A stretch of DNA of 64,000 nt from an uncultured Collinsella sp. (GTDB taxonomy: Bacteria; Actinomycetota; Coriobacteriia; Coriobacteriales; Coriobacteriaceae): positions 56,748-120,747 of the forward strand of contig CAUDNY010000008.1 of NCBI GenBank assembly GCA_958450865.1. The letters run 5' to 3'. Position numbers and translations under genes: made by a program. The stretch's first letter is position 1. Each line of letters opens with the position of its first letter. Shown in pieces: positions 3,347 through 47,141 of this stretch. The notes beneath the pieces are model-generated. The model saw only the letters and a program-made list of their open reading frames with translations. It was not told the DNA's origin and searched no databases.

Positions 3347-5914
3347 TTATTTGCCCTTGGGCTTGCTGGCGTAGAACTTCTTCTTTTTGGGCTTGCCGGC
3401 GGAGTCAGACTTGCCGTTGCCGCGCGGCCCCCGGTCGCCTGCCTGCGCGTGCGCGGGCGCCGTTGCGCGAGGCTTGCGGGCTTCGGGGTTGCGCAGCTCC
3501 TCGACGCGCTCGGCAATTTCCTCGGCGCTAAAGCCGACTTCGGCCATGGCGTCCTCGATGGGCAGGCGGCGCACGATGTAGCAGTGGTGCACCTTCTGGT
3601 TGCGCGCGAAGTCCTCGGGGATGGTCTGCGCCGTAATGTCCTCCAGCACCACGCCCGCGCGGGCGAGCTTGCGCGTTTCGGGGCGGAAGCCGCGCAGGTT
3701 GCAGCTAAAGATGGCATGGCCGCCCTGCGCGAGCAGGCGCGATACGCCAGCCAAAAGCTCAACATGGTCGCGCTGGACATCCCAGGTGCGGCGGCCCATC
3801 TTGGACGAGTTCGAGAACGTGGGCGGGTCGACAAAGATCAGGTCCCAGCGGTTGCGCGTCTGGCGCTGGTCGCGAATCCAGGCGAGCACGTCGTCGCGCA
3901 CAAAATGATGCTGAGGCCCCACAAAGCCGTTCTGGCGCATGTTGCGCTCGGCCCAGTCCAGATAGGTATTGGAGAGGTCGACCGTCACGGTCTCATCGAC
4001 GCCGCCATCGGCCGCGTAGCAGGTGGCAGTGCCGGTGTAGGCAAACAGATTGAGGAAGCGGCGCGCCTGCTTGGCGTGCTCGCGCACCAGGTTGCGGGTG
4101 ACGCGGTGGTCCAAGAAGATGCCGACGTCCAGGTAGTCGTCAAAGTTGACGGCAAAGGTGAGGCCGCCCTCTTCGATGAGCGGCAGGCGACGACGCGCGA
4201 TATTGGCGCGCTCACCCGAGCCGCCCTTGCCGGCGCCCTGCTTGCCGTACTGCGAGCCGCCGCGCGAACGCATGCGGGCCTTGGCGTGCACATGCTCGGC
4301 GGGAACATCTAGGATGCGCGGCGCGATGGCCAGAATGTCGAGCATACGGGCCTGGGCCAGTGCGGGGTCGATGGTCTTGGGCGCGGCGTATTCGGCGATG
4401 ACGAGCCAGCGGCCCGGCGTCTGCGGGCAACCCTCGTACAGGTCGATAGCGGCGGAGTAGTCGGGCAGGTCGGCATCGTAGACGCGGTAGCAGCTCACGC
4501 CCTCGCGCCTGGCCCACTTGCGGCGCAGACGGGCATTCTTGCGCAGGCGGTTGGCGAACTGCTCGGACTCGGGGATGAGCACGGGCAGCGGCTTGCCGTC
4601 GCCCAGGTCGAGCATGGCGGCAGGCTCGGGCATGGCGGAAGCGGCGGCTTCATCGTTGACTTCGTTGGCATCCGCAGCCTCGGCCTCGGCATCTGCGCTG
4701 GTTGCAGCTTCAAATGCTGCGGCGGCGTGGTTGAGCGAAGGCCAGACTTCGACGGTCGCCTCTTCGTTGTTGGGCATGACGGCGATGGAGCGCGCGGGCT
4801 CGGCGTGGAGCGCGCGGGCCATAAGGCCATCGCGGGTGAGCGCGGCGACCGGTGCCGAAGCGAGCTCGGGCGCGCGGCGCAGCTCGCCGACCAGCGTCAT
4901 GGCGTCGTGCATGAGCGAAAGCGGCGTCTCGGTGGTGTCCGCGACCACGGCGGCACCGGCGACGGCGCCCGCATGGTCCAGCACGGTGGCGGGCTTGGCG
5001 GCGCAAAAGTCGACAAAACGCTTGTAGCCGGCGCACTTGACCATGCGCTCGGCAGTCTTGCGGGCGGCGGGGTCGATGTCTGCGGCCACGATGCGCGCCT
5101 GGCGCTCGCGCGCTGCCGCCTCGCGCTCGCGCGCCTCGGCAAGCAGCTGCTCCCACAGGGCGGCGTCGTGCAGCTGCCAGCCCTCAAAGCCCCAGTGCTC
5201 GCGGGCGGCGCCCGGGGCGCGGTCGGTTAGGATATTCACTGCCTCCAGCAGCAGACCGCCGCCGGCACACGAAGCGTCGACCAGCGTGGGCAGGGCTTCG
5301 TTCTCGTAATCGTCGGCCGTCAGCTCGCGCTCGCACAGTGCAGTCCAGCCGACCTGCGCCAGCACCAGGGCGGCGTAGTCGGGGCGCAGCACGTGTGTGC
5401 CCTCGCCGGCGCGGGTCGCGGCGGGCGGCAGGCGCTTGAACAGCGGGTCGCCCGAAAGGTCCAGGCTGATGCTCGCGCGGCGCTGACGCAGCGAAAGCAG
5501 CAGGTGGACGTCGGGATCGGCGGCGTCGACATCGGCGCGACGGCCCGTGGTCTCGGCCAGACGGTCGCACAGCGCGTCCTTGGCGCGTAGGGCCGAGAAG
5601 CGCGTGTTGCGCAGCTGCTCGGTCACGCCGCGGGCGGTGATGGCGATGGTGGCGCCGGGGCGGACGATGCTCTCCCAGGCGATGTCGTAAACGCCGTCGT
5701 ACAACTCATCGGCATCCTGCGCCTCAAAGCGCCCAAGCACTACAAACACGCGGCTCGCCAGGCGCGACCACAGACAGGCGCGGTAGCCTTCTTCGAGCTC
5801 GCCCTCAAACGTAGCGCGGCCCTTCAGGCGGCGGACATGCGAAAGCCCGAGGCGTTTAAGCTCATCGGCGAGTGCGGACTCAAAGCCCTCGGGGCAGCTT
5901 GCGTAAAATTCCAT
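3347..5914 (-). CDS. rlmL: bifunctional 23S rRNA (m2G2445/m7G2069) methyltransferase RlmKL-like (THUMP + two class I SAM MTase domains), expanded to 855 aa
   Basis: The N-terminus MEFYASCPEGFESALADELKRLG...LWSRLASRVFVVL...ISLDLSGDPLFKR parallels E. coli RlmL. RBS AGAGAGG lies upstream. Internal Ala/Asp-rich insert and Lys-rich C-tail. Confidence 0.8.
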   Translation of the reverse strand: MEFYASCPEGFESALADELKRLGLSHVRRLKGRATFEGELEEGYRACLWSRLASRVFVVLGRFEAQDADELYDGVYDIAWESIVRPGATIAITARGVTEQLRNTRFSALRAKDALCDRLAETTGRRADVDAADPDVHLLLSLRQRRASISLDLSGDPLFKRLPPAATRAGEGTHVLRPDYAALVLAQVGWTALCERELTADDYENEALPTLVDASCAGGGLLLEAVNILTDRAPGAAREHWGFEGWQLHDAALWEQLLAEAREREAAARERQARIVAADIDPAARKTAERMVKCAGYKRFVDFCAAKPATVLDHAGAVAGAAVVADTTETPLSLMHDAMTLVGELRRAPELASAPVAALTRDGLMARALHAEPARSIAVMPNNEEATVEVWPSLNHAAAAFEAATSADAEAEAADANEVNDEAAASAMPEPAAMLDLGDGKPLPVLIPESEQFANRLRKNARLRRKWARREGVSCYRVYDADLPDYSAAIDLYEGCPQTPGRWLVIAEYAAPKTIDPALAQARMLDILAIAPRILDVPAEHVHAKARMRSRGGSQYGKQGAGKGGSGERANIARRRLPLIEEGGLTFAVNFDDYLDVGIFLDHRVTRNLVREHAKQARRFLNLFAYTGTATCYAADGGVDETVTVDLSNTYLDWAERNMRQNGFVGPQHHFVRDDVLAWIRDQRQTRNRWDLIFVDPPTFSNSSKMGRRTWDVQRDHVELLAGVSRLLAQGGHAIFSCNLRGFRPETRKLARAGVVLEDITAQTIPEDFARNQKVHHCYIVRRLPIEDAMAEVGFSAEEIAERVEELRNPEARKPRATAPAHAQAGDRGPRGNGKSDSAGKPKKKKFYASKPKGK

Positions 5915-5989
5915 GGGTGACCTCTCTGGTTGCGTCGCTCCATTATATGATGGATGCTTCGTTTGCCCTTATCCTCGAAAGGAACCCAT

Positions 5990-6817
5990 ATGATTGATGC
6001 GTGCTCCGAATCCGCCGTGCTCTTTTTTGACGTGGACGGCACGCTGACGTCGTTCGATCCCGACGATATGACCGATAAGGACTTCAATGCAATCCATCCG
6101 TCGAAGGCCGTTGTCGATGCATTTGGTCGCCTGCGCAATGCGGGTCACCAGGCATTTATCTGCACGGGTCGCCCCTTGTGGCTGATTGCCGATGGCCTGC
6201 GCGCGCTGAACCCGGCGGGTATCGTTGCCATGGCGGGCGCCACACTCGAGGTCGAGGGATGCGTGGTACACGAGGACTGCTTTGACGAAGACATTGTTGA
6301 GGAGCTCGCGCGTCGCATTACTGTGGCGGGCGGCGAGGCGTTGTTCGAGACGAACGGTGCCACCTATTCACTTGAGCCAGTTGGTGTCGAACAGTCATTT
6401 CTGCTAGGCGCCGGCGTGGTGCATGGCGTTGATCAGATGCGCGTCGATGGGCATTTGCGCGTAGGCAAGGTGTGCATTAACGCGTGCGACCTGGCTCGCG
6501 TAGCCAACGATGATGGCTTTATCGATCGCGAGTTTGAGCTGTGCAACACCGGTGGCCAGAATCGCGAGCTGAGCCCCAAGGGCATCGACAAGGGCGTGGG
6601 CGTGGCGCGAGCGCTGGAATACCTGGGTCGCACCGGCAACGCGCGCACCTTTGGCTTTGGCGATTCCGGCAACGATCTGGGTATGCTCGCCGCCGTCGAG
6701 ACGGCTGTAGCCATGGGCAACGCCATGCCCGAGGTCAAGGCAGTCGCCGACTACGTGACCGACGATGTCGCACACGATGGCACCGTCACAGCGATGCGCC
6801 ATTTTGGGTTGATTTAA
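5990..6817 (+). CDS. HAD-IIB (Cof-type) phosphatase
   Basis: FFDVDGTLT motif I and GDSGNDLGML motif IV. RBS AAAGGAA lies 6 nt before the ATG at 5990. Confidence 0.8.
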   Translation: MIDACSESAVLFFDVDGTLTSFDPDDMTDKDFNAIHPSKAVVDAFGRLRNAGHQAFICTGRPLWLIADGLRALNPAGIVAMAGATLEVEGCVVHEDCFDEDIVEELARRITVAGGEALFETNGATYSLEPVGVEQSFLLGAGVVHGVDQMRVDGHLRVGKVCINACDLARVANDDGFIDREFELCNTGGQNRELSPKGIDKGVGVARALEYLGRTGNARTFGFGDSGNDLGMLAAVETAVAMGNAMPEVKAVADYVTDDVAHDGTVTAMRHFGLI

Positions 6818-6818
6818 T

Positions 6819-6859
6819 AAATGGCCGGGTCGCCCGCAGTGGGGGCGACCCGGCCATTT
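6819..6859. terminator. bidirectional terminator (HAD / DeoR convergent)
   Basis: aaatggccgggtcgccc - gcagtg - gggcgacccggccattt. A GC-rich 17-bp stem flanked by A and T runs. Confidence 0.75.
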
Positions 6860-6862
6860 GAG

Positions 6863-7654
6863 CTATTTTGCAATATAGAGCTTGGGATGACTGCGACTGC
6901 TCTCGATCGCCGCCGTCATGATGCCCTCGTCGTCTCCATCAACGATGATGCCGTCGAGGTCATCGATCTGCGCGGACTGATAAAAACTGGTCTTATTGAA
7001 CTTTCCCTGGTCAACCATCATGTAGCCCTGGTTTGAGTTGGTAAGGTACATATGCTTGATCATGGCCGAGAAGTCGTGCTCGACGGTAAAACCGTGGTCG
7101 GGGTGGAATCCGTCGGCACTGACAAACGCCTTGTCGGCATGTAGTTTGCTCATGCAGTCGAGCGTTAGTGCGCCCGCGAGATAGAGGTGGCCCTTGCGCA
7201 CGGAGCCGCCCAGCAGCACTACCGAAGCATTGGGGAGATTGAAGCTGGCGTAGTTCGCGATTGCAAGATCGCCGGTGATAATGGTGATCTCACGCTTGTC
7301 CATGAGGGCCTTAGCGAAGTAAAAGCCTGTGGTGCCGATATCAATTACCAGAACATCGCCATCATCAACAAGAGTTGCTGCGGTTGCGGCGATGGCTTCC
7401 TTGGCCTCGACTTGGACATTGATGCGCTCCTCGGGATACGAGATTGCGTTGGAGCGAGAAAGCGATACCGCTCCGCCGCGTACGCGACGCAGCTTGCCTT
7501 CGGATTCCAGCGAGATGAGGTCGTGTCGTGCGGTGACTTCCGAAACCGAAAAACGGCGAACGATGTCGGATACCGAGATATTTGGCTTTTCGGCCAGCCA
7601 ATTCATGATAAATCGCTGACGCTCGGCCGGTGAAAGGTCTGAAGTAGATGCCAT
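6863..7654 (-). CDS. DeoR-family transcriptional regulator
   Basis: From M50 of the tracked ORF: HTH ISVSDIVRRFSVSEVTARHDLISLESEGKLRRVRGGAV plus a DeoR C-terminal sugar-phosphate sensor domain. Confidence 0.85.
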   Translation of the reverse strand: MASTSDLSPAERQRFIMNWLAEKPNISVSDIVRRFSVSEVTARHDLISLESEGKLRRVRGGAVSLSRSNAISYPEERINVQVEAKEAIAATAATLVDDGDVLVIDIGTTGFYFAKALMDKREITIITGDLAIANYASFNLPNASVVLLGGSVRKGHLYLAGALTLDCMSKLHADKAFVSADGFHPDHGFTVEHDFSAMIKHMYLTNSNQGYMMVDQGKFNKTSFYQSAQIDDLDGIIVDGDDEGIMTAAIESSRSHPKLYIAK

Positions 7655-9591: not shown

Positions 9592-10983
9592 ATGCAAGCC
9601 ATCCTTCCCATACTTGAGTTTATCCAATCGATTCTGACCAAGCCAGCGTGGATTATGGGTCTATTTGCCTTTGTGGGCCTTGTCGCGCTTAAGCGTCCTG
9701 CCCACAAGGTGATGACGGGCACCCTGAAGCCCATTCTTGGTTACATCATGCTGTCCGCCGGCGCCGCTGTTGTTCAGGAGAACCTTGCTCCGCTGGGTAC
9801 CTTCATCGAGACCGGTTTCCACATCACCGGCGTCGTGCCCAACAACGAGGTCGTTGTTTCGATGGCTCAGAGCGTCCTCGGCGTTCAGACCATGATGATC
9901 CTGATTCTCGGCTATGTCGTGAACATTATCATTGCCCGCTTTACCAAGTTTAAGTACATCTTCCTGACGGGCCATCACAGCATGTTTATGGCCTGCCTGC
10001 TGTCTGCCGTTCTGCAGGCATCTGGCTTCCAGGATGTCCAGCTTGTCATCGTGGGCGGCATGTTCCTGGGCCTCGTGAGCGCTATGCTTCCCGCCGTTGG
10101 TCAGCGTTTCACCGAGAAGGTTACCGATGGCGATGAAATCGCCATGGGCCACTTCGGTTCACTCGCCTATTACATCTCCGCTGCAGTCGGTACGCTTTTT
10201 GCTAAGGACGCCGAGGAGAACAGCACCGAGAAGATCGAGGTTCCCGAGAAGTTCGCCTTCCTGCGCGACACTACCATCTCCACGGCTCTTACCATGGCCT
10301 TCTTCTACCTGGTTACCGCTTTCGCCGCTTACATCGCAGATCCTGCGGTCGTTACCAAGACCGCTGGCGGCGACAACGTGATTGTCTATGCCCTGACCTG
10401 TGCCCTGTCCTTTGCCGTTGGTGTCACCATCGTCTATAACGGCGTTCGTATGATCCTTGCCGACCTGGTCCCGGCTTTCCAGGGCATCTCCAACAAGCTG
10501 ATCCCCGGTGCCATCCCCGCCGTCGACTGCGCCGTCTTCTTCCCCTATGCTCCCACCGCCGTCATCCTCGGCTTTGTCGCATCCTTCATCGGTGGCGTGG
10601 TCGGTATGTTCATCGTGGGCGCTACCCTGGGCATCTTCATCATCCCGGGCATGGTTCCCCACTTCTTCTGCGGTGCTACCGCAGGCATCTACGGCAATGC
10701 TACCGGCGGTCGCAAGGGCGCAGCTCTTGGCGCTTTCGTCAACGGCCTGCTCATCACCTTCGCCCCGGCCCTGCTCCTGCCCGTTCTTGACGTCTTTGGC
10801 TTCAAGAACACTACGTTCGGCGACTTCGATTTCTCCGTCATTGGTATTACGCTTGGCCGCGCTGCCGAGGCCTTCGGTACCACCGGTGTCTACGCGATTC
10901 TTGCTGCCCTTCTGATCGTCGCCTTCGTCCCCAACTTCATCCACACCAAGGGTGCTGTGATTAACCACGTTGAGGAAGAGTAA
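9592..10983 (+). CDS. PTS EIIC permease (ascorbate family, UlaA/SgaT-like)
   Basis: ATG at 9592 after AAGGAAG. Polytopic membrane protein with UlaA-like length and hydrophobicity pattern. Confidence 0.85.
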   Translation: MQAILPILEFIQSILTKPAWIMGLFAFVGLVALKRPAHKVMTGTLKPILGYIMLSAGAAVVQENLAPLGTFIETGFHITGVVPNNEVVVSMAQSVLGVQTMMILILGYVVNIIIARFTKFKYIFLTGHHSMFMACLLSAVLQASGFQDVQLVIVGGMFLGLVSAMLPAVGQRFTEKVTDGDEIAMGHFGSLAYYISAAVGTLFAKDAEENSTEKIEVPEKFAFLRDTTISTALTMAFFYLVTAFAAYIADPAVVTKTAGGDNVIVYALTCALSFAVGVTIVYNGVRMILADLVPAFQGISNKLIPGAIPAVDCAVFFPYAPTAVILGFVASFIGGVVGMFIVGATLGIFIIPGMVPHFFCGATAGIYGNATGGRKGAALGAFVNGLLITFAPALLLPVLDVFGFKNTTFGDFDFSVIGITLGRAAEAFGTTGVYAILAALLIVAFVPNFIHTKGAVINHVEEE

Positions 10984-11041
10984 TCCAGGCATACGTTAAG
11001 CCCTAATCGGGCGGAGCTCCGATAACCGGCTCCTACACGGA

Positions 11042-31725: not shown

Positions 31726-32988
31726 CTATGCCCGTATTGAGGGCTGTGCTGATTGACGGCGACGCTCCCAGCGAGCCAGCTTAATCGTCACCAGCGCGAG
31801 CGCCCAGGCCACAAGCGAGAACGCGGCTCCCACTGCGCCCACGTACGCAATGCCAATGCTGCTTACCACGGCGCCGCCCACTGCGGTGCCAAACGAGATG
31901 CCGACGTTAAACGCCATGGGCTCAACCGAACTTGCGAGTACCATCGACTTGGGATGGCGGCTGCGTGCCACGTCCATAAAGTGCGTGATGCACGACACCG
32001 AGAACAGGTACATGAGCAGCGCCAAGCTAAAGACAAAGACCAGCGCGAGCGGCATGGTGCCGCCCACAGCAAACAGCCCGAGCAGCGCCGCAGCCTGCAG
32101 CACAAACGTCACAAGCAGTGCCTTCATGCCAAAGCGCGCATCGATCCATCCGCCCAGGATGTTCGAGATCAGACAGAACACGCCGTAGGCCATAAGCGTG
32201 GTGCTCGCCTGAACGGTGCCCATGCCCAGCACCTGCTCAAGATAAGGCGTCACGTAGCCGTAGAACACGTAGACCGAGCCCACGCCAAACAAAAAGATGA
32301 GCATGCCGGTGATGATGCTCGGCTCGCGTAGCAGACCCGCCTGCTCGCGGAAGGTGGCAGGCTCGTCGGTTTGCCCAGCGCGCGGCATAAACGCCACGAG
32401 CGCTCCGCAGATCAGAACGGCAAAGGTAAGCGTGCCGTACATGGCCACGTGCCAGTCGAGCGTGTCGGCCACAAACTTGCCGATCGAAGTGACAAAGACC
32501 ATTGCCACGGAAAACGCACCATATACCACCGAGATGGCAAGCGAAGTTTGCTGCGGGGACAGCAGCTCGGGGATGTACGTCACGCCCACGGCGAGCAGTG
32601 CGCCCGAGACGGAGCCCAGGACAATGCGCGAGATAAACAGCACCTGGAAGTTGGGCGCCAACGCCATGACCAGGTTGCCGAGCACAAAGACGATGCTGTA
32701 GCACACGAGCAGCTGGTAGCGGCGGAATCGCCCCGTGCTGAGCGCAAGCGCCGGCGTGGCGATAGCGTAGACGAGCGCGAACACGCTGATGAGCTGGCCC
32801 GCAGTAGCAAGTGATACGCCGAGTTCCGTTGCCAAGTCGCTCTCGATACCGATGACCACGAACTCGGAGCAGCCGAGAGAGAATCCCAACAGCACGAGCA
32901 GCGCCAGGCAGAGCTTGGTGCGCGCGGGGGAGAGCGCGGCGGCGGTTGACTTACTTTTAGGCGTGGTTGCGGCGGTCAAGGTTGTCAC
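31726..32988 (-). CDS. MFS transporter (DHA1/YdhP-like); start uncertain (GTG 32988 or TTG 32979)
   Basis: 12-TM pattern; GRFRRYQ loop motif. The tracked ORF extends upstream through a non-coding palindrome, so a shorter start is preferred. Confidence 0.75.
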   Translation of the reverse strand: MTTLTAATTPKSKSTAAALSPARTKLCLALLVLLGFSLGCSEFVVIGIESDLATELGVSLATAGQLISVFALVYAIATPALALSTGRFRRYQLLVCYSIVFVLGNLVMALAPNFQVLFISRIVLGSVSGALLAVGVTYIPELLSPQQTSLAISVVYGAFSVAMVFVTSIGKFVADTLDWHVAMYGTLTFAVLICGALVAFMPRAGQTDEPATFREQAGLLREPSIITGMLIFLFGVGSVYVFYGYVTPYLEQVLGMGTVQASTTLMAYGVFCLISNILGGWIDARFGMKALLVTFVLQAAALLGLFAVGGTMPLALVFVFSLALLMYLFSVSCITHFMDVARSRHPKSMVLASSVEPMAFNVGISFGTAVGGAVVSSIGIAYVGAVGAAFSLVAWALALVTIKLARWERRRQSAQPSIRA

Positions 32989-33037
32989 TCCAATGTCGCA
33001 TGAATAAGCGGGATTCAATCCCTGCAACTCTAACAGA

Positions 33038-33068
33038 ATGTGACAAAGGAGCAGTCTCTTTGTCACAT
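33038..33068. repeat. GACAAAGGGAC palindrome, copy 2 (variant; in a divergent promoter region)
   Basis: atgtgacaaaggagcagtctctttgtcacat. Confidence 0.8.
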
Positions 33069-33075
33069 GAAGACC

Positions 33076-33106
33076 TTGCCTGTATAGTCGCAATACAGGC
33101 GAAGAT
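33076..33106 (+). promoter_or_regulatory. putative MerR-type promoter/operator P1: TTGCCT - 19 bp - GAAGAT with dyad CCTGTAT-N7-ATACAGG
   Basis: Read directly. 23 of 31 positions are identical to 34216-34246. Lies 35 nt upstream of the lpdD-idi ATG. Confidence 0.45.
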
Positions 33107-33140
33107 GGTCTCAGGTACATCGCGGGCGACAGGAGATCCC

Positions 33141-34088
33141 ATGGGTATGCACACGACAAAGGTTGCAGTGGGCGAGGGCAAGTTTGCGCTCGAGGCCCAG
33201 TTGACGGTGACGCCGCGAGGCATGGTGGCGTACGCCTGCTCGCCGGAGTTCGCGCACCTGGGCGCTACAGCGCAGGCCATTCCGCGCCCCGAGCCCGACC
33301 GTACGGCGACGGTGAGCATCCTGGCCGTTCCGTGCCATCGAGATGAGATCCCGGCGCACGATATCGCGGCGGCGCTGGCCACGCGCTTTAGTGTGCCGGT
33401 AGTTGCAAGCACAGGTTTTCATGTCGAGCAGGCGAGCACGGATGACCTGCAGCGCGTGCTCGATACCACCAAGGAGCTCATCGCCGCGCTCGAGGAAGCT
33501 GCCGCCCGCATTCTGCGCGCCGGCTGGGATGAGGGCGGCGCGGGTGCCGAGGTCGTGGCGGTCGATGCCGCGACCGGCGAGGCGCTCGGCCCCGTCGATC
33601 GCATCGAGGCCCATGCCGGTGAGGGCATCCTGCATCAGGCATTTCTGACGCTTCTGGTCGAGGGACAGGGCGAAGACGCGCGCCTGCTGCTCTGCCGCCG
33701 CAGCCCGCTCAAGCGCCTGTGGGGCGGCGTGCTGGCCGACGGCTGCGCCGGGCATCCGCTCCCTGGGGAAGACGTCGCCGTCGCGACGGCGCGTCGCATC
33801 AACGAAGAGCTCGGCATCACGCGCGCATCCGACCAGCTCAAGCACCTCGGTCACGTGACCTACCGCGAGGACCACGGCGACGGTCGCTGCGAGTGCGAAT
33901 GGTGCGAGGTCTACCTTGTCCATGTTGAGCCGGGCGAGCTGCATATCAACCAAGAGGAGATCTCGGAAGTGCGCCGCGTGGCCCCGTCCGAGCTCAAAGG
34001 CTACCTGCAGGGTCACCCTGAGCAGCTGGCCCCCTGGCTCCGCGAGGCTCTGGAGGTCCCCTCCATCCGCGCAGCCCTCGCTATGTGA
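33141..34088 (+). CDS. fusion protein: LpdD/KpdD-like prFMN-decarboxylase D subunit (N-terminal, about 135 aa) + isopentenyl-diphosphate delta-isomerase type 1 / Nudix domain (C-terminal, about 170 aa)
   Basis: AGGAG lies 5 nt before the ATG at 33141. The N-terminal part has ...SPEFAHLGAT...VPCHRDE...STGFHVEQASTDDL. The C-terminal part has EAH..LHQAF, RRSPLKRLWGGVLADGCAGHP, RRINEELGI and ECEWCEVY, in IDI-1 order. Single uninterrupted frame. Confidence 0.75.
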   Translation: MGMHTTKVAVGEGKFALEAQLTVTPRGMVAYACSPEFAHLGATAQAIPRPEPDRTATVSILAVPCHRDEIPAHDIAAALATRFSVPVVASTGFHVEQASTDDLQRVLDTTKELIAALEEAAARILRAGWDEGGAGAEVVAVDAATGEALGPVDRIEAHAGEGILHQAFLTLLVEGQGEDARLLLCRRSPLKRLWGGVLADGCAGHPLPGEDVAVATARRINEELGITRASDQLKHLGHVTYREDHGDGRCECEWCEVYLVHVEPGELHINQEEISEVRRVAPSELKGYLQGHPEQLAPWLREALEVPSIRAALAM

Positions 34089-34112
34089 AAAAAGACAGTT
34101 CCTTTGCCATAT
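34083..34112. repeat. GACAAAGGGAC palindrome, degenerate copy 3 (contains the lpdD-idi ATG-TGA end)
   Basis: atgtgaaaaaagacagttcctttgccatat. Same ATGTGA junction as copy 4, but the arms are decayed. Confidence 0.3.
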
Positions 34113-34114
34113 CC

Positions 34115-34181
34115 AAACCGTCACAGCATTCGATGAAAATCTCGAAATCGAGGAAAAGCGTCGAATGTTGTGACGGTTTTT
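34115..34181 (+). terminator. long-stem intrinsic terminator after lpdD-idi
   Basis: aaaccgtcacagcattcga - 27 nt - tcgaatgttgtgacggttt (19 bp, 1 mismatch) followed by TTTTT. Confidence 0.7.
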
Positions 34182-34215
34182 GTCCAGGGGATCGCTTCTC
34201 ATCCAAAAATCCCGC

Positions 34216-34246
34216 TTGACTGTATTGCCGCAACACAGCGCAACGT
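34216..34246 (+). promoter_or_regulatory. putative MerR-type promoter/operator P2: TTGACT - 19 bp - CAACGT with dyad CTGTAT-N9-ACACAG
   Basis: Aligns without gaps to P1: ttgaCTGTATtgcCGCAAcACAG versus ttgcCTGTATagtCGCAAtACAG. Confidence 0.4.
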
Positions 34247-34281
34247 AAGGGGTGTCCGATAACGGGCGCCCCTTTTTAAGT
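34247..34281 (+). promoter_or_regulatory. terminator-like hairpin in the 5' leader of the permease-ubiD-ubiX operon
   Basis: aaggggtgtccg - ATAA - cgggcgcccctt (12 bp including two G-U pairs), running into TTTTT. About 50 nt before the permease ATG. Confidence 0.45.
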
Positions 34282-34330
34282 GGCAACGCGGCTGCGAATC
34301 CGGAGCGCCCCCAACAAGAAAGGTGGGGAG

Positions 34331-35788
34331 ATGGAAGCGGAAAAGAAGGCGTTTAAGATCACCAAGCGCGAAATTGGCTTTGTGCTGGGTATCGTTGTCT
34401 TTTTGCTGGTGAAGTTTCTTCCTTTGGCGGAGCTGAGCTCGACGGTCGAGCTCACGGTCGGCGGTCAGACCTGTCTGGCGTTGACGCTCGCCACGGTGGT
34501 GTTCTGGGCGTGTGGCGTGGCACAGCCGGGCTTTGTGGGTCTGCTCTACTGCGCGCTGCTCGTTCTGTTTCAGGTGTGCGTGGACGACACGGGCGCCGCG
34601 AGTATCTCGGCGACGGTCGCCTCTACGTTTAGCTCGTGGACCAAAGCCACCATGTGGCTCGTCATCGGCGCCTACCTCATCGCCAGCGCGGTCAAGGAGT
34701 CGGGCCTGGGCGAGCGTATCGCCTACGCGTTTATGCTCAAGTTCGTGCGCGATGCCAAGTCGCTCATCATCTCGATCTTCGCGCTCACCTTTGTGCTGTC
34801 GCTGCTGATCCCGCACCCGTTCCCCCGTGCCTTCCTCATCCTCGCCGTCGTCTCGGTCATCGCCGAGTCCGCCGGCTACGGTGACGATGACCACGGCAAG
34901 CTCGGATTCCTCGTGTTTGCCGCTGCCGCCCCGGGTTCCATGTTCTTCCTGACGGGCGACTCCACGCTCAACCCGCTCGTTGCGCAGTACAGCGCCGAGG
35001 TCGGCGGCATGAGCCCGTCTTTCGTCGACTGGTTCCTCTACATGAGCGTGCCCATGCTGGTTGCGCTGCTGTGCACCCTGTTCCTGGGTCTCTTCCTCTT
35101 TAAGCCCAGCAAGGAGCTCGTCTACGATCGCGAGCAGATCGTGGCCAAGCAGGCCGCGCTCGGCAAGCTCTCCGTCAAGGAGATTCGCACCATCGTGTGG
35201 CTTGTCATCGCCATTGCGCTGTGGCTCACCGTCTCGGGCGATTACATCGGCTGGGTCACCCTGGCCATCGGCGTCTCTCTTGCCATGCCCATCATCGGCG
35301 AGGTCCTCACCCCCGCCAGCTGGAACGCTGTCGACATCAAGTCCCTCATGTTCCTGACGGCCGCCATGGCCGTGGGTTCCGTGGGCGGTGCCACCGGCAT
35401 GAACGCCTGGATCGCCGATGTCGTGCTTCCCAGCTCCGTGCCCGAGAACATCTTCCTGTTCGCCCTGCTTGTCGCCGCGCTCTCCATGGTCATCCACATG
35501 TTCATGGGCTCGGTCATGGCCGTGCTCGGCGTGTGCGTGCCGGCGTTCATCAGCTTCGCGGCCGGCTCCAGCGTAAGCCCGCTCGCCGTGGCGCTCATCG
35601 TCTTCACGTCCATCAACATCCACTACATTCTGCCGTTCCACAACCTGCCGATCCTTATCGGCGAGGGCAAGGACGCCGGCGGCTACACCTCCAAAGAGGC
35701 TATGCGCATGGGCATTCCCCTCACTGTGGTCGTCTTTATCGTCGTGCTGGTCGAGGCCGCCTGGTTCCACCTCTTTGGCCTGATGTAA
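34331..35788 (+). CDS. ion-transporter-superfamily anion permease (DASS/ArsB-like), putative aromatic-acid importer
   Basis: ATG after AAAGGTGGGGAG. About 12 TM segments with the two-repeat architecture typical of SLC13/CitMHS-like permeases. The substrate is inferred from context only. Confidence 0.7.
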   Translation: MEAEKKAFKITKREIGFVLGIVVFLLVKFLPLAELSSTVELTVGGQTCLALTLATVVFWACGVAQPGFVGLLYCALLVLFQVCVDDTGAASISATVASTFSSWTKATMWLVIGAYLIASAVKESGLGERIAYAFMLKFVRDAKSLIISIFALTFVLSLLIPHPFPRAFLILAVVSVIAESAGYGDDDHGKLGFLVFAAAAPGSMFFLTGDSTLNPLVAQYSAEVGGMSPSFVDWFLYMSVPMLVALLCTLFLGLFLFKPSKELVYDREQIVAKQAALGKLSVKEIRTIVWLVIAIALWLTVSGDYIGWVTLAIGVSLAMPIIGEVLTPASWNAVDIKSLMFLTAAMAVGSVGGATGMNAWIADVVLPSSVPENIFLFALLVAALSMVIHMFMGSVMAVLGVCVPAFISFAAGSSVSPLAVALIVFTSINIHYILPFHNLPILIGEGKDAGGYTSKEAMRMGIPLTVVVFIVVLVEAAWFHLFGLM

Positions 35789-35931
35789 GCGGTCGAGCGC
35801 TTGGGCTGTAAGCAGCCGAGTGCTCGAACTGCGAGTGGCCGAGCGTCCCATCTATGAGCGCCGCGGCCCCACTACGTTACCCAGCCCGGCGGCATCCTCG
35901 CCGCCGGGCACTCTCCCGAAAGGAGCATGCT

Positions 35932-37419
35932 ATGTCCACTACCGATGCTTCCCAGATCCACGACCTGCGCTCCGCGCTCGACTTTTTGCGCGAGGTGCCG
36001 GGCCAGCTGCTCGAGACCGACACCCAGGTCGATCCCGATGCCGAGGTCTCGGGCGTCTATCGCCACGTCGGTGCCGGCGGCACCGTTATGCGCCCGACCA
36101 AAGAGGGCCCGGCGATGGTCTTCAACAACGTCAAGGGCTTTGACGATGCCAAGGTCTGCATCGGCATGCTTGCCAGCCGCAAGCGCGTTGCCGCTCTGCT
36201 CGACCTGGACGAGGAGCACCTGGGCCTCGAGATCGGCAAGCGCTTCGAGAACCTGATCGCGCCCGAGCAGATCGCCGAGGGTGCGCACGTCGACTGTCAG
36301 GAGGTCGTGTACAAGGCGACCGACGAGGGCTTTGACCTGCGCAAGATCGTTCCCGCTCCCACCAACACGCCCGTCGATGGCGGCCCCTACATCACCATGG
36401 GCCTCGCCTACGGCACGAGCCCCGACGGCTCCCAGTCCGACGTGACCATCCACCGCTTCTCCTGCGTCGACAAGGATAAGCTTGCCATGTGGATTACCCC
36501 CGGCAGCCGTCACCTGGGCGCGTTCTTTGACGAGTACTGCCAGCGCGGCGAGGACATGCCCATCTCCATCTCCATCGGTTTGGACCCCGCCGTGTACATG
36601 TGCTGCGGTTTTGAGGCTCCCACCACACCGCTCGGCTTCAACGAGCTGCAAATTGCCGGCGCCCTGCGCGGCCACGCTGTCGAGCTTGCCGACTGCGTCA
36701 CCGTTCCGCAGAAGTGCATCGCCAATGCCGAGTACGTGCTCGAGGGCTACCTCATGCACGACGAGACCATCAACGAGGACGTCAACGGCCACGGCTACGC
36801 CATGCCCGAGTTCCCCGGCTACACCGGCGGCGCCAAGGTCTGCCCGGTGATCAAGATCACCGCCGTCACCACGCGTGTCAACCCCATTATGGAGAGCTGC
36901 ATCGGCCCTTCGCACGAGCACGTGTCCATGGCCGGTATCCCCACCGAGGCTTCCATCTACAAGATGGTCGAGACCGCTATCCCGGGCCGCCTGCTCAACG
37001 TCCACGCTGCTCCCTGCGGCGGCGGCAAGTTCGTTGCCATCATGCAGTTCAAGAAGTCGAGCAAAAATGACGAGGGCCGTCAGCGCAACGCCGCCATGCT
37101 CGCCTTCTCGGCATTCTCCGAGCTCAAGCATGTGATTCTGGTTGACGAAGACGTCGACATCTTCGACATGAGCGACGTGATGTGGGCCATGACCACGCGC
37201 TTCCAGGCCGACGTGGACCTCATCACCATCCCCGGCTGCCACTGCCACGTGCTCGACCCGTCCAACGATCCCGCGTTCGACCCCACGATCCGCGAGCATG
37301 GCATCGCCTGCAAGGCCATCTTCGACTGCACGGTTCCGTTCAACCTCAAGAAGAACTTCATCCGCTCGCAGTTCATGGAGATCGACAAGGACAAGTGGGC
37401 CAAGGAGATTGCTTTCTAG
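35932..37419 (+). CDS. UbiD-family prFMN-dependent decarboxylase, AroY/LpdC (protocatechuate/gallate decarboxylase) type
   Basis: AGGAG lies 6 nt before the ATG. DLRSALDFLREVPGQLLETDTQVDPDAEVSGVYRHVGAGGTVMRPTKEGPAMVFNNVKGF parallels the Klebsiella AroY / L. plantarum LpdC N-terminus. Confidence 0.85.
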   Translation: MSTTDASQIHDLRSALDFLREVPGQLLETDTQVDPDAEVSGVYRHVGAGGTVMRPTKEGPAMVFNNVKGFDDAKVCIGMLASRKRVAALLDLDEEHLGLEIGKRFENLIAPEQIAEGAHVDCQEVVYKATDEGFDLRKIVPAPTNTPVDGGPYITMGLAYGTSPDGSQSDVTIHRFSCVDKDKLAMWITPGSRHLGAFFDEYCQRGEDMPISISIGLDPAVYMCCGFEAPTTPLGFNELQIAGALRGHAVELADCVTVPQKCIANAEYVLEGYLMHDETINEDVNGHGYAMPEFPGYTGGAKVCPVIKITAVTTRVNPIMESCIGPSHEHVSMAGIPTEASIYKMVETAIPGRLLNVHAAPCGGGKFVAIMQFKKSSKNDEGRQRNAAMLAFSAFSELKHVILVDEDVDIFDMSDVMWAMTTRFQADVDLITIPGCHCHVLDPSNDPAFDPTIREHGIACKAIFDCTVPFNLKKNFIRSQFMEIDKDKWAKEIAF

Positions 37420-37452
37420 TAAGTAGCCCTACCAAGTAGTCAAGGAGTTGTC

Positions 37453-38031
37453 ATGCCTGAGTCTTCTGGCCGTCCCCGTCGCATCGTCGTTGGCGTGTCT
37501 GGCGCTAGCGGTGCCGCGCTGGGTCTTGAGTGCCTCAAATGCCTGCGTCAGGCCGGTGCCGAGTCGGCGCTTGTCGTCACACGTGGGGGAGAGATCACCA
37601 TCGAGCAGGAGCTCGGCATGACGCTCGACGAGTTTGCCGCGCATGCCGATGTGGTCTACGACAACAAGAACATCGGCGCCGCCATCGCAAGCGGCACCTA
37701 TCCGGTCGACGGCATGATCGTGGCCCCGTGCTCCATGAAGACGCTCGCCGGCATCGCAAGCGGCTACAGCGAAAACCTGCTGCTGCGTGCGGCCGACGTG
37801 CAGATGAAAGAGCAGCGCCGCCTGGTGCTCATGGTGCGCGAGACGCCCTTCAGCGCCATTCACATCGACAACATGGCGCGCCTGGCGCGCGTGCCGGGCG
37901 TCATGCTCATGCCGCCCATGCTCACGTTTTACAACGGCCCCGCCACGCTCGATGACGCGGTGCATCACATTGCCGCCAAGGCGCTCGAGGCCGTCGGCGT
38001 GTCATGTGCAAACTATAAGCGCTGGTCATAG
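37453..38031 (+). CDS. ubiX: flavin prenyltransferase UbiX (LpdB/KpdB equivalent)
   Basis: RIVVGVSGASGAALG..., VAPCSMKTLAGIASGYSENLLLRAADVQMKEQRRLVLMVRETP. Typical 192 aa. Confidence 0.9.
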   Translation: MPESSGRPRRIVVGVSGASGAALGLECLKCLRQAGAESALVVTRGGEITIEQELGMTLDEFAAHADVVYDNKNIGAAIASGTYPVDGMIVAPCSMKTLAGIASGYSENLLLRAADVQMKEQRRLVLMVRETPFSAIHIDNMARLARVPGVMLMPPMLTFYNGPATLDDAVHHIAAKALEAVGVSCANYKRWS

Positions 38032-38063
38032 GCGTCTTTAGGGTAGGATACGAGGAGTGTTTG

Positions 38064-38093
38064 AGCCCGCTGCCCCTGTGGGCGGCGGGCTTT
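38064..38093 (+). terminator. hairpin after ubiX
   Basis: agcccgctgccc - ctgt - gggcggcgggct (12 bp, one G-U pair) then TTTGG. Supports the merR start at 38112 rather than 38061. Confidence 0.5.
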
Positions 38094-38111
38094 GGTGTGT
38101 CGGGAGGATCT

Positions 38112-38981
38112 ATGCAGATGGGCATGTATGCGATTAGCGAGATGGCGAGCTTGTTTAACGTTTCGCGCCAAACGCTCATCTACTACGACAAGATCGGCCT
38201 GTTTAAGCCCGCCGTGGTTAACGAAAAAGGCTACCGTTTCTATTCGCCCACGCAGATCCCGCTCATGCGTCTGATCTGCATGCTGCGCGACCTGGGGCTC
38301 GAACTCGACGAGATCGACCGTCTGACCTCGACGTTCGACATTGGCGAGATGACCGATCACCTGCGCTCACGGGTGCAGGCGCTCGACGAGCAGATTGCCG
38401 GGCTCAAAGCCGAGCGTGCGAGCGTGCAGGAGCGTCTGAGCTTTTACGACGAGGCAGTTTACTGGCGCGAGCGGGAGGGCAAGCCGGAGCTCAAGCAGTT
38501 TGAGCGTCGCTACGTGGTCTTTGAGGAGTTTCCGGGCGATATCGAGCGTGGCCGCTCGATGCTGCACCCCACGCTCATGCGGGCGATTCTGCGCATGCGT
38601 ACGCTGACGGGCACGCGTCCCATGCGCGGCTGGGGCGCCATGCTGCGTCGCGAGGCGCTGCATTCCGACGACCCCATCGCCGGCGCCGGCTCCTTTGCCG
38701 TGCTGCCGCGCGGTGCCGAGGAGTTGCTGCCGAGCGACGCTGCCGAGCTGGCAGAGATCGGCATCGAAGTGCTGCCCGAGGGCACATACCTGTGCATGAG
38801 CCGCTGGGGCATGCCGTACGAGCCCGAAGGCATCCGCGCCATCGTGGCCTGCATGGACGAGCACGCGCTCCAGCCCGTTGGCAACGCCTTCGACTTTTGC
38901 TACCTCGATACCACGAGCTACGACGAGTCCCACCAAGAGGACTTCTGCTGCATCCAAATCCCCGTCGCCCTCCAGATGTGA
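38112..38981 (+). CDS. MerR-family regulator with C-terminal GyrI-like effector-binding domain
   Basis: GGAGG before the ATG. HTH YAISEMASLFNVSRQTLIYYDKIGLFKP...GYRFYSPTQIPLMRLICMLRDLGLELDEI, a coiled coil, then an effector domain of about 170 aa. Confidence 0.8.
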   Translation: MQMGMYAISEMASLFNVSRQTLIYYDKIGLFKPAVVNEKGYRFYSPTQIPLMRLICMLRDLGLELDEIDRLTSTFDIGEMTDHLRSRVQALDEQIAGLKAERASVQERLSFYDEAVYWREREGKPELKQFERRYVVFEEFPGDIERGRSMLHPTLMRAILRMRTLTGTRPMRGWGAMLRREALHSDDPIAGAGSFAVLPRGAEELLPSDAAELAEIGIEVLPEGTYLCMSRWGMPYEPEGIRAIVACMDEHALQPVGNAFDFCYLDTTSYDESHQEDFCCIQIPVALQM

Positions 38982-39006
38982 CAAAGGGACAGTCCCTTTG
39001 TCACAT
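38976..39006. repeat. GACAAAGGGAC palindrome, copy 4 (consensus; supplies the merR ATG-TGA end)
   Basis: atgtgacaaagggacagtccctttgtcacat; 13-bp perfect arms. Confidence 0.9.
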
Positions 39007-39018
39007 CCACGCCCATTT

Positions 39019-39098
39019 CTTAGAAACTTGCAAAAACTGCAAGTTTCTAAGGTAACATCTTATAAACTTGCAAATAATGCAAGTTTATAAGATGTTAC
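39019..39098. repeat. two abutting perfect AT-rich palindromes sharing the core AAACTTGCA-N5-TGCAAGTTT
   Basis: P1 is cttagaaacttgca-aaaac-tgcaagtttctaag (39019-39051). P2 is gtaacatcttataaacttgca-aataa-tgcaagtttataagatgttac (39052-39098). Confidence 0.9.
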
Positions 39099-39124
39099 GT
39101 CTGGCCGGGCGCTAGGGAGACTCT

Positions 39125-40441
39125 ATGAACATCGTTCGCCGAAGCCGCTATCTTGATCGACTCATTGCTTTTCAGGATACCGACCTCATCAAAATCGTGA
39201 CGGGTATACGCCGTTGCGGCAAATCCACGTTATTGGACATGATGAGGGAGCACCTGGCGCAACAGGGGGTGCCGGCCGAGCGTTTGCTGACCTTTAAGAT
39301 GGAATCTCTAGAGTATGCGGGGATTACAGATTACCTGACGTTTTATCGCATGGTTCGGGAGCGCGTTGACGGTGTCGATCGTCCCTATCTGTTCTTTGAC
39401 GAGCTCCAGAATGTCGAGGGCTGGGAAAAGGCGGTTAACTCGCTCCGAATCGATTTGCCGTGCGATATCTATGTCACGGGCTCCAATGCCTTTTTGCTAT
39501 CGAGCGAGCTTGCAACGCTTATCTCGGGCCGGTATATCGAGGTCAAGATGCAGCCGCTCACGTTTGGCGAGTATCTTGATTTTCGCTCGATTGATGCGGT
39601 CGTTGCCGAAGGGCTTGGCGAGAGGGCCGAGCTCGTTTCCAAGACGGGCGATCGCCTTAATTCAAACACCGTGCTCGAGCAGTACATAACCTATGGCGGC
39701 ATGCCGTTTCTGGCTCATGACGAGCCGAGACGCGAACCGTGCCTCGACTACATCCGCAGCCTCTATCAGACGATTGTCGCGCGCGATATCCTATTGCGCG
39801 CGACGCGTAGAGGTCGCGGAGCTATCACCAAGCGCGACGTTCTCGAGCGGCTCTGTGCGTATCTGGCAGACAACATCTCCAATCAAACTTCGGTCAACAA
39901 AATCGTAGGGACGCTCAACGAATCATCGGGCGGTAAGACCAACGCATCGACGGTGTCGGCGTATATTGACGCTCTGGAAGAGACGTACCTGTTTACCAAG
40001 GTAAAAAGGTATGACGTCAAGGGGCGGGAGCTTCTCAAGACAGGCGGTAAATATTACATAGCCGATACGGGAATCCGCAGCTATCTTGACGGATATAGAG
40101 GCAGCGATAGCGGAAGGATGCTCGAGAACGTTATCTACAACCAGCTTGTCTTTGAAGGATACGAAGTGTTTTGCGGCCATCTGCGCGCGGGGGAAATCGA
40201 CTTTGTCGCAATCGGCGAGGGATCGGACCGTAAATATATCCAGGTTACCGAACGGATCGATGCTGAGGCGACCAGAGAGCGTGAGCTGCGACCGCTCAAA
40301 CTAAACACGCTGGGAAAAATCCCTGATTCGTACGAGAAGATCCTGATTGTCAGGGATGGTGAGCATCCAACAGACATCGACGGCATCAGAATCGTAGGGG
40401 CGGCCGATTTCTTGCTGAGAAACAAGATCGCCCACGGCTAA
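39125..40441 (+). CDS. AAA-family ATPase with DUF4143 C-terminal domain (AAA_14/DUF4143 architecture)
   Basis: Walker A GIRRCGKST and Walker B LFFDELQ. The layout ITGSNAFLLSSELATLISGRY...PLTFGEY is typical of this family. Visibly lower GC than its neighbours. Confidence 0.8.
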   Translation: MNIVRRSRYLDRLIAFQDTDLIKIVTGIRRCGKSTLLDMMREHLAQQGVPAERLLTFKMESLEYAGITDYLTFYRMVRERVDGVDRPYLFFDELQNVEGWEKAVNSLRIDLPCDIYVTGSNAFLLSSELATLISGRYIEVKMQPLTFGEYLDFRSIDAVVAEGLGERAELVSKTGDRLNSNTVLEQYITYGGMPFLAHDEPRREPCLDYIRSLYQTIVARDILLRATRRGRGAITKRDVLERLCAYLADNISNQTSVNKIVGTLNESSGGKTNASTVSAYIDALEETYLFTKVKRYDVKGRELLKTGGKYYIADTGIRSYLDGYRGSDSGRMLENVIYNQLVFEGYEVFCGHLRAGEIDFVAIGEGSDRKYIQVTERIDAEATRERELRPLKLNTLGKIPDSYEKILIVRDGEHPTDIDGIRIVGAADFLLRNKIAHG

Positions 40442-40447
40442 ACGCAA

Positions 40448-40480
40448 AATGTGACAAAGGGACAGCCCCTTTGTCACATT
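40448..40480. repeat. GACAAAGGGAC palindrome, copy 5
   Basis: aatgtgacaaagggacagcccctttgtcacatt. Confidence 0.9.
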
Positions 40481-40555
40481 CCATGCGAGCTCCCGTGTCA
40501 TCTGGGGGTATAAGGCTAGCAAGTGTTTATTTGCGAGGCCAAGGGGGCGCCCCGT

Positions 40556-47107: not shown

Positions 47108-47141
47108 AATCCGACAAAGGGACTCTCCCTTTGTCGGATTC
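47107..47141. repeat. GACAAAGGGAC palindrome, copy 6 (variant outer arms)
   Basis: gaatccgacaaagggactctccctttgtcggattc. Confidence 0.85.

Follow-up and report, generated by a model that had tools for sequence, protein, structure and literature searches.

What kind of system is encoded at positions 33038-38981 of a 64,000-nucleotide stretch from an uncultured Collinsella sp. (contig CAUDNY010000008.1; the whole stretch is called the window below), and which of its genes belong together? An earlier note had read this segment as a compact, apparently self-sufficient island for an aromatic-acid decarboxylase of the AroY/LpdC type. The present analysis makes it probable that the locus is a substrate-inducible, non-oxidative decarboxylase system that depends on prenylated flavin mononucleotide (prFMN) and converts acids of the protocatechuate/gallate type to catechol or pyrogallol and CO2. 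The substrate, the mode of transport (by analogy) and a catalytic activity of the isopentenyl diphosphate isomerase (IDI)-like domain are parts of this reading that we infer. In the colon, the breakdown of polyphenols gives protocatechuate and gallate as major products; decarboxylation turns these into the bioactive compounds catechol and pyrogallol.

The segment 33141-38981 contains five genes, whose ribosome-binding sites place the starts at 33141, 34331, 35932, 37453 and 38112. Their features are as follows.

33141-34088, plus strand: whole lpdD-idi fusion gene, 315 amino acids (aa), with PF21758 and NUDIX/IDI-like matches
33141-33515, plus strand: LpdD domain of the fusion, PF21758, 66.4 bits (cut-off 27)
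33549-34088, plus strand: IDI-like Nudix domain of the fusion, NUDIX/IDI-like match, fold like E. coli IDI
34115-34183, plus strand: intrinsic terminator of lpdD-idi, with a 21-bp stem, an inner hairpin and a U-run
34331-35788, plus strand: DASS permease, 485 aa, PF00939 (Na_sulph_symp), 121.7 bits
35932-37419, plus strand: UbiD of the AroY/LpdC type, 495 aa, with three UbiD Pfam domains
37453-38031, plus strand: UbiX flavin prenyltransferase, NF004685 and TIGR00421
38112-38981, plus strand: MerR regulator of the BmrR type, 289 aa, Pfam MerR_1/MerR, with a helix-turn-helix, a long coiled coil and a GyrI-like C-terminal domain

The six elements listed in the earlier note for 33038-38981 are recovered, with Pfam or NCBIfam domains for the five genes and a folded terminator. 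The terminator, which ends in UUUUU, has a folding energy of -43.7 kcal/mol (z = -6.9) and bears out the claim that lpdD-idi has one of its own. The statement that uptake, catalysis, cofactor synthesis, cofactor chaperoning and sensing are encoded together held in every test run.

The UbiD protein is composed of PF20695 (55 bits), PF01977 (165 bits) and PF20696 (108 bits) domains. Its best matches in the PDB are the AroY structures 5o3m and 5ny5 (E = 5e-166), followed at a distance by HmfF (E = 3.5e-60) and VdcC (E = 2.8e-28), and it shares 52% sequence identity with AroY of E. cloacae (EcAroY). In AroY, Arg188, His327, Lys363 and His436 hold two adjacent hydroxyls, and their mutation abolishes activity (PMC5656893). 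All four of these catechol-binding residues are kept in the Collinsella protein, as R193, H330, K366 and H439, and the catalytic acid E289 of EcAroY is kept as E293. E293 and R175, the arginine of the ionic network, are invariant across seven UbiDs. The catechol-binding and catalytic residues are likewise kept in the orthologues of Coriobacterium (58% identity) and of two of the other loci compared, L005 (60%) and L003 (63%), but the catechol-binding residues are replaced in VdcC-type paralogues from related genomes. Further homologues occur on lactobacillar plasmids (about 54% identity), in enterobacteria (52-58%) and in Clostridium butyricum (61%). The score against the VdcC model NF041204 is 435.6 bits, under the cut-off of 650, and a Pfam search of the locus found no gene for a VdcD/EcdD subunit (PF26358). 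By sequence comparison, the UbiD is thus an AroY/LpdC-type enzyme, as had been proposed from its N-terminus; the E-value to AroY and the retained catechol-binding residues sustain that assignment. The UbiX protein passes the cut-offs of both NF004685 (217.5 bits against 188) and TIGR00421 (210.9 against 108.9).

The permease upstream of ubiD exceeds the PF00939 cut-off of 27 bits by a wide margin and falls below that of TIGR00785 (131 bits against 198.6), as a member of a divergent subfamily. The earlier note had placed it in the ion transporter (IT) superfamily, and the PF00939 match agrees with this since DASS belongs to that superfamily. It had also regarded the permease family as not deducible, which was too cautious; the PF00939 match points to DASS as the family. 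The protein is 48-51% identical to DASS proteins encoded inside the VdcCD clusters of L002, L003, L004 and L006, and the subfamily is therefore one that goes specifically with clusters for hydroxybenzoate decarboxylases. When plasmids were searched with this protein as query, the matches reached 23-24% identity only. The nearest solved structures are the exchangers DiT2.1, DiT1 and LaINDY. Gallate induces the IT-superfamily gene lp_2943, the neighbour of lpdC in L. plantarum, 73-fold, and a proton-motive force arises there from decarboxylation (PMC4600210). On this analogy, the DASS permease is probably a hydroxybenzoate carrier. In locus L066, an internal deletion of about 520 bp removes part of the DASS gene (around 9830-9931, equivalent to 34968-35490 of the window), and the rest of the module is kept.

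The regulator encoded downstream of ubiX is a MerR protein by Pfam. Its C-terminal domain has no Pfam match even at E = 10, so that the MerR part of the proposed MerR/GyrI-like assignment stands on a family match and the GyrI-like part on fold only. An AlphaFold model of the protein (pLDDT 82) matches full-length BmrR in Foldseek (3iao, E = 5e-15), then BrlR and EcmrR, and its C-terminal domain matches GyrI/SbmC (1jyh, 1bow). Two promoters in the locus share the sequence TTGmCTGTAT-N7-AyACAG, followed by an xAxxxT hexamer 19 nucleotides (nt) past the -35 element.

33076-33106, plus strand: putative MerR-type promoter of lpdD-idi (site 1), TTGCCTGTATAGTCGCAATACAGGC-GAAGAT, with -35 TTGCCT and a 19-nt spacer
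33080-33098, plus strand: dyad of site 1, CTGTAT-N7-ATACAG, with -10-like GAAGAT
34216-34246, plus strand: putative MerR-type promoter of DASS-ubiD-ubiX (site 2), TTGACTGTATTGCCGCAACACAGCG-CAACGT, with -35 TTGACT and a 19-nt spacer
34220-34238, plus strand: dyad of site 2, CTGTAT-N7-ACACAG, with -10-like CAACGT

The 19-mer dyad occurs only at these two promoters in the 64 kb, against 0.06 occurrences expected, and is essentially invariant in 80 Collinsella loci. The same register of -35 element and dyad is found before both transcription units in Coriobacterium glomerans (L001; one site at 11032), before the DASS operon of L091 (4759) and before ubiD in L005 (5058), where the sequence is TTGACTGTATTTCTACTATACATCT-TACACT, the MerR protein is 34% identical and the genome has a guanine-plus-cytosine (GC) content of 55%. 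A dyad inside a spacer of 19-20 nt is a signature of promoters activated by MerR/BmrR-type regulators. Judged from the sequence, the dyad is probably the operator of the MerR protein; we infer that this regulator is its partner and that it activates instead of repressing. A terminator-like hairpin with a 12-bp stem and a U-run lies directly past the putative -10 element of the DASS operon (34247-34277). It was not observed in Coriobacterium or L091, and could be a leader attenuator if transcription begins further upstream.

The most unusual component of the locus is the fusion protein. A profile of the N-terminal domains of the fusions matches the L. plantarum LpdD structures 8po5 and 8pzh (E = 1e-12). 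LpdD is a chaperone of reduced prFMN (prFMNH2) with a metal site formed by His35, His61 and Asp63 (PMC10865409). The equivalent residues of the fusion, H39, H66 and D68, are conserved. In an AlphaFold model of the whole protein (pLDDT 88, pTM 0.78), the C-terminal half adopts the fold of E. coli IDI (TM-score 0.82-0.84 to 1nfs and 1hx3 by structure comparison). H158, H165, H205, E251, E253, Y241 and W299 of this half are invariant and correspond to the metal ligands, Glu116, Tyr104 and Trp161 of the isomerase; there are also conserved basic residues, which we take to be diphosphate ligands. The half misses both NCBIfam IDI equivalog cut-offs (124.5 against 127 and 71.6 against 105.8 bits). In its motif D-G-C-A-G-H-P, Ala203 occupies the position of the catalytic C67 of E. 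coli IDI, and Cys202 stands one residue earlier. All 13 close relatives share the invariant Cys202 and lack the canonical cysteine, with serine replacing the alanine in some, whereas about 191 of some 210 homologues carry the canonical cysteine directly before [GS]HP.

An exhaustive HMMER search recovered full-length LpdD-IDI fusions down to 28% identity, the distant ones from metagenome contigs. The fusions nearest to Collinsella carry C-A/S-G-H-P and the distant ones T-C-C-S-H-P. The latter also pass both IDI cut-offs, from which it follows that a true isomerase was the original partner in the fusion. A protein search with a distant fusion as query returned stand-alone IDIs. The gene label idi and the supply of a prenyl donor, both suggested by the earlier note, thus hold for the fold and the ligands, but not for the cut-offs or for the catalytic cysteine position; prenyl-donor supply by this half is plausible but not secure. 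A hydrolase that converts dimethylallyl diphosphate (DMAPP) to dimethylallyl monophosphate (DMAP) ranks below an isomerase or binder, given the IDI-like fold, the ligands and the invariant cysteine. The literature searched contains no paper on any LpdD fusion, nor on UbiX or DMAP with a Nudix protein. It is possible, though doubtful, that the fusion is a dedicated prFMN supply-and-delivery protein, whose IDI-like half, deprived of the canonical catalytic cysteine in Coriobacteriaceae, would capture or make the dimethylallyl donor for UbiX and whose LpdD half would load the oxygen-sensitive prFMNH2 made by UbiX into the UbiD of the resident module, of whatever kind.

The fusion gene lies no more than four genes from ubiX in nine contexts.

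Window: fusion / DASS-UbiD-UbiX-MerR
Coriobacterium glomerans (L001): fusion-UbiD-DUF554-UbiX-MerR
Collinsella sp. AGMB00827 (L002) and L004: LysR / VdcC-VdcD-DASS-UbiX-fusion
Collinsella sp. An2 (L003): LysR / VdcC-VdcD-DASS-UbiX-UbiD-fusion
L005: MerR-UbiD-DUF554-UbiX-fusion
L006: VdcC-VdcD-...-DASS::UbiX-...-fusion
L007: UbiD-DASS-UbiX-fusion
L091: VdcD-fusion-x-UbiD-MerR-DASS-UbiD-UbiX-MerR

The partner UbiDs belong to three classes, namely AroY-like enzymes, true VdcC (677-722 bits; L002-L004 and L006) and another type. The fusion gene is often translationally coupled to ubiX, and in L004 and L007 it overlaps the end of ubiX. Plasmids of Clostridium butyricum, Ligilactobacillus and Companilactobacillus carry a plain LysR/UbiD-UbiX-LpdD arrangement. 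Compact clusters of the C, B and D genes, such as these clostridial and lactobacillar plasmids hold, are not unusual, contrary to the earlier suggestion that the three genes are often split between loci. The features that set the Collinsella locus apart are the IDI fusion, its dedicated subfamily of DASS and a regulator of the BmrR type.

Three of the contexts display further peculiarities. The Collinsella-like L091 (1-9837) is located at the same chromosomal site as the window, with aldose epimerase and RF-1 genes downstream, and combines several decarboxylase modules with one cofactor-support set: VdcD, the fusion, two 492-aa UbiDs, two MerR proteins, one DASS and one UbiX. In L006, Na_sulph_symp and Flavoprotein (UbiX) domains occur together in one called gene of 652 aa (5425-7383), which is either a fusion of permease and UbiX or a pair of genes that is frameshifted or mis-called. 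A DUF554 membrane protein replaces DASS in the AroY-type clusters of L001 (12755-13498) and L005 (6648-7367). The two DUF554 proteins are 56% identical to each other and may be an uncharacterised carrier of the aromatic acid or its product.

The window fusion is 99% identical to the fusion protein of Collinsella aerofaciens 2789STDY5834902, and the window is assigned to that species. A relative is encoded in no fewer than 551 species-level Collinsella genomes, most of which have the module. The borders of the unit were drawn from the 80 best loci related to the window, all of which are Collinsella loci with a fusion relative of at least 90% identity. The module is present without an ATPase gene in 46 of the 80 and with one, as in the window, in 15. 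Ten loci cleanly lack 34181-40486 but retain lpdD-idi with its promoter as well as the gene for a major facilitator superfamily (MFS) transporter; the other nine are cut by contig ends or have partial deletions. In 38 loci the module stands between direct repeats of an element of about 75 nt, the terminator of lpdD-idi, of which empty sites hold a single copy. The window has an insertion, 39007-40484, in place of the second copy. The variable unit is DASS-UbiD-UbiX-MerR (34181-39006, or to 40486 with the later ATPase insertion), and lpdD-idi lies outside it. The presence/absence polymorphism with defined junctions agrees with the proposed island, whose borders need to be redrawn to leave out lpdD-idi.

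In the module-less genomes lpdD-idi is intact, with a ratio of nonsynonymous to synonymous substitution rates (dN/dS) of 0.11-0.20 at dS 0.2-0.43, against a median of 0.13 in module-positive genomes. Purifying selection acts on the gene in these genomes too. The module has a GC content of 0.62-0.65, like its flanks, and no integrase or transposase was found among the window genes and Pfam matches. The presence/absence structure, together with the arrangement of L091, identifies this site as a hot spot: modules of UbiD plus regulator come and go there beside a resident cofactor-support gene.

The earlier note had also taken palindromes to mark the start of the island, the end of lpdD-idi and the end of merR. 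The 29-nt palindrome unit is TGTGACAAAGGGAC-A-GTCCCTTTGTCACA, to which the GACAAAGGGAC arms belong.

33039-33067, no strand: palindrome copy with 3 mismatches, in the divergent intergenic region
34084-34112, no strand: decayed half-copy only
38977-39005, no strand: perfect copy, overlapping the merR stop codon, at the left junction of the ATPase insertion
16023 and 40450: further copies, with looser ones at 47113 and 54506

The arms have 10 matches against 0.7 expected. The palindromes are a dispersed family resembling repetitive extragenic palindromic (REP) elements and do not delimit the island; they are spread through the window, and the comparative junctions do not fit them. Two copies coincide with an indel junction and may promote rearrangement in Collinsella genomes. 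Between the palindromes at 38977 and 40450, the insertion 39007-40484 carries an AAA_14/DUF4143 ATPase gene (39125-40441) with a GC content of about 0.53 against 0.62 around it. Two perfect AT-rich hairpins, at 39019-39050 and 39052-39098, precede the ATPase gene and share AACTTGCAAAnAnTGCAAGTT.

The proposed working of the locus would be as follows. The DASS permease would import the acid, perhaps by exchange against the neutral product, a mechanism put forward for lp_2943 of L. plantarum. An aromatic ligand bound in the GyrI-like domain would cause MerR, sitting on CTGTAT-N7-AyACAG in the 19-nt spacers of the lpdD-idi and DASS-ubiD-ubiX promoters, to activate both. UbiX would prenylate reduced flavin mononucleotide (FMNH2), and the IDI-like half of the fusion may bind isopentenyl diphosphate (IPP) or DMAPP and raise the local supply of prenyl donor. 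The LpdD half would hold prFMNH2 and pass it to the apo-decarboxylase, and the AroY-type UbiD would then decarboxylate the acid.

Several points weigh against this scheme as a whole. By sequence, the UbiD is equidistant from enterobacterial AroY and lactobacillar LpdC-like enzymes, and protocatechuate and gallate are therefore not distinguishable as substrates, in line with the earlier view that the exact substrate cannot be deduced. DASS carriers normally move di- or tricarboxylates or sulfate. The IDI-like half is without the canonical catalytic cysteine and under both equivalog cut-offs, and in a strict anaerobe the scheme would need a route for the oxidation of prFMNH2. No paper was found that links Collinsella to this activity or to UbiD. 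Since lpdD-idi is kept in module-less genomes, the fusion is not tied to this decarboxylase alone.

The last point leads to the proposal that lpdD-idi is mainly a housekeeping IPP isomerase, or serves other UbiDs in the genome, and neighbours the module by chance. Its integrity and unchanged dN/dS in the 10 of 80 module-less genomes, its own promoter and terminator, and the single fusion gene of L091 at a site with three UbiD genes all speak for this. We nevertheless consider it unlikely: the LpdD half has no known role beyond prFMN handling, the fusion adjoins ubiX or ubiD in every context examined, the dyad is common to the lpdD-idi and operon promoters, and the loss of the canonical cysteine would be odd for a housekeeping isomerase. 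The dyad itself may be read in another way, as a repressor operator over a conventional promoter or as a conserved core promoter, with MerR regulating elsewhere. A conventional TTGTCA-17-TATAGT promoter is also readable at site 1, with the dyad over its -10 element; the dyad-bearing lpdD-idi promoter persists unchanged where the module and its MerR are absent, so that the motif may serve another regulator or the core promoter; and in Collinsella sp. An2 a related sequence precedes the fusion gene of a cluster that carries a LysR regulator. These observations are to be set against a -35 element, dyad and 19-nt spacing that stay in register at six sites in four genomes, even at 55% GC and with a MerR of 34% identity, and against the general knowledge that a central dyad in such a spacer is a MerR/BmrR hallmark. 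Many Collinsella genomes, moreover, carry MerR paralogues of 65-67% identity that could occupy the site. A repressor or core-promoter role is improbable on this balance, and the dyad is better read as a MerR operator.

The same machinery could instead act on another hydroxy- or heteroaromatic carboxylate, such as a dicarboxylate suited to DASS, 2,3-dihydroxybenzoate, a drug or a host metabolite. The classical substrates of DASS carriers and the dicarboxylate exchangers among the nearest structures point in this direction, as do the VdcC score under its cut-off, the few residues that set UbiD specificity and the 48% of positions that differ from AroY. However, the four hydroxyl-holding residues of AroY are kept and are absent from VdcC-type paralogues, the furandicarboxylate enzyme HmfF is far more distant, and the same DASS subfamily accompanies true VdcC enzymes, which have monocarboxylate substrates. 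Another substrate is accordingly rated as quite unlikely. The least credible proposal, to which we give hardly any weight, places the UbiD in quinone biosynthesis or lets it run as a carboxylase that turns catechol into protocatechuate for anaerobic degradation of the ring. In its favour, UbiD reactions can go both ways, and carboxylation of catechols by AroY is seen in vitro (PMC5656893). Yet there are no ring-reduction or CoA-ligase genes nearby in the window, and the module is dispensable in 10 of the 80 genomes. The earlier note had considered that the UbiD might prove to be of the quinone-pathway type, but its scores are a third or less of the menaquinone and ubiquinone equivalog cut-offs (TIGR03701, 165 against 495.9; NF008175, 126.8 against 788). 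On these scores and the dispensability of the module, a role in quinone biosynthesis was rejected. Decarboxylation of a protocatechuate/gallate-type acid thus remains the preferred function.

Among known systems, AroY of Klebsiella pneumoniae and Enterobacter cloacae, with EcdB/KpdB (UbiX) and EcdD/KpdD, resembles the Collinsella locus in UbiD subclade (5o3m, 5ny5), in its catechol-binding and catalytic residues, in its need for a UbiX partner and in the absence of a VdcD-type subunit beside the catalytic gene. Collinsella differs in being a strict anaerobe, in possessing the LpdD-IDI fusion instead of a small Zn-ribbon D protein, and in adding the DASS permease and BmrR-type regulator to the unit. 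The LpdB/LpdC/LpdD system of L. plantarum with lp_2943 (GacP) shares a UbiD, a UbiX, an LpdD chaperone and an IT-superfamily carrier, on the Collinsella side by homology. It is substrate-inducible and is proposed to exchange precursor for product, which gives a proton-motive force (PMC4600210, PMC10865409). In L. plantarum, however, the genes are split over two loci, LpdD stands alone as a 14-kDa protein with no IDI attached, and the co-induced transcriptional regulator, lp_0274, is of unstated family.

The VdcBCD/BsdBCD/EcdBCD enzymes for vanillate and 4-hydroxybenzoate are alike in family and cofactor, and VdcCD clusters of further Collinsella genomes and of relatives include a DASS of the same subfamily, a UbiX and an LpdD-IDI fusion. 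The window UbiD differs from them in its score (435.6 against 650 bits), its lack of a D subunit gene and its other substrate-pocket residues. BmrR, BrlR and EcmrR share with the window MerR a full-length fold (E = 5e-15) and promoters whose 19-nt spacer has a dyad at its centre. Their identity to it is only about 20%, the effector domain of the window protein is invisible to Pfam, and its putative regulon is a catabolic decarboxylase, not a multidrug pump. E. coli Idi (1nfs/1hx3) resembles the C-terminal half of the fusion in fold, in the metal ligands H25, H32, H69, E114 and E116, in Y104 and W161, and in the basic diphosphate-binding residues. The Cys67 position is alanine in the Collinsella domain, which, unlike Idi, is fused to LpdD.

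Upstream of lpdD-idi and divergent from it runs the following gene.

31726-32995, minus strand: MFS transporter (Cmx/AraJ-like), Pfam MFS_1 118.6 bits, with a start near 32990 read from the sequence

Its best NCBIfam matches are far under their cut-offs. The gene accompanies lpdD-idi in all Collinsella loci compared, including those without the module. Whether it belongs to the system is uncertain; it may be an exporter of catechol or pyrogallol, or have nothing to do with the module. Within the operon, 143 nt separate the DASS gene from ubiD (35789-35931), and this spacer is strongly structured (-73.7 kcal/mol, z = -4.25). It contains two long GC-rich hairpins and no U-run, and is possibly an element of mRNA processing or stability. 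Rfam detected no riboswitch (for example for FMN) at E <= 1, with only chance matches of miRNA models on AT-rich hairpins. Long minus-strand open reading frames at 34199-35851 and 35872-37299 were treated as antisense artefacts of high GC content.

The value of the locus lies in the LpdD-IDI fusion, the DASS subfamily, the probable operator and the natural occurrence of genomes with and without the module in a human gut bacterium that is very common. In biotechnology, prFMN supply is what limits AroY-type enzymes. If the fusion is indeed a supply-and-delivery protein, it would answer two problems of UbiD enzymes, the source of the prenyl donor and the formation of the holo-enzyme in anaerobes, and would be a ready-made helper for heterologous UbiD activation. 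Its recurrence beside ubiX points to a helper protein without description in the literature searched. The conserved dyad offers a testable operator for a new, presumably aromatic-acid-responsive regulator of the BmrR type. The module is missing in about one in eight inspected Collinsella genomes, which are natural knock-outs, and is a candidate gene basis for person-to-person differences in protocatechuate and gallate conversion.

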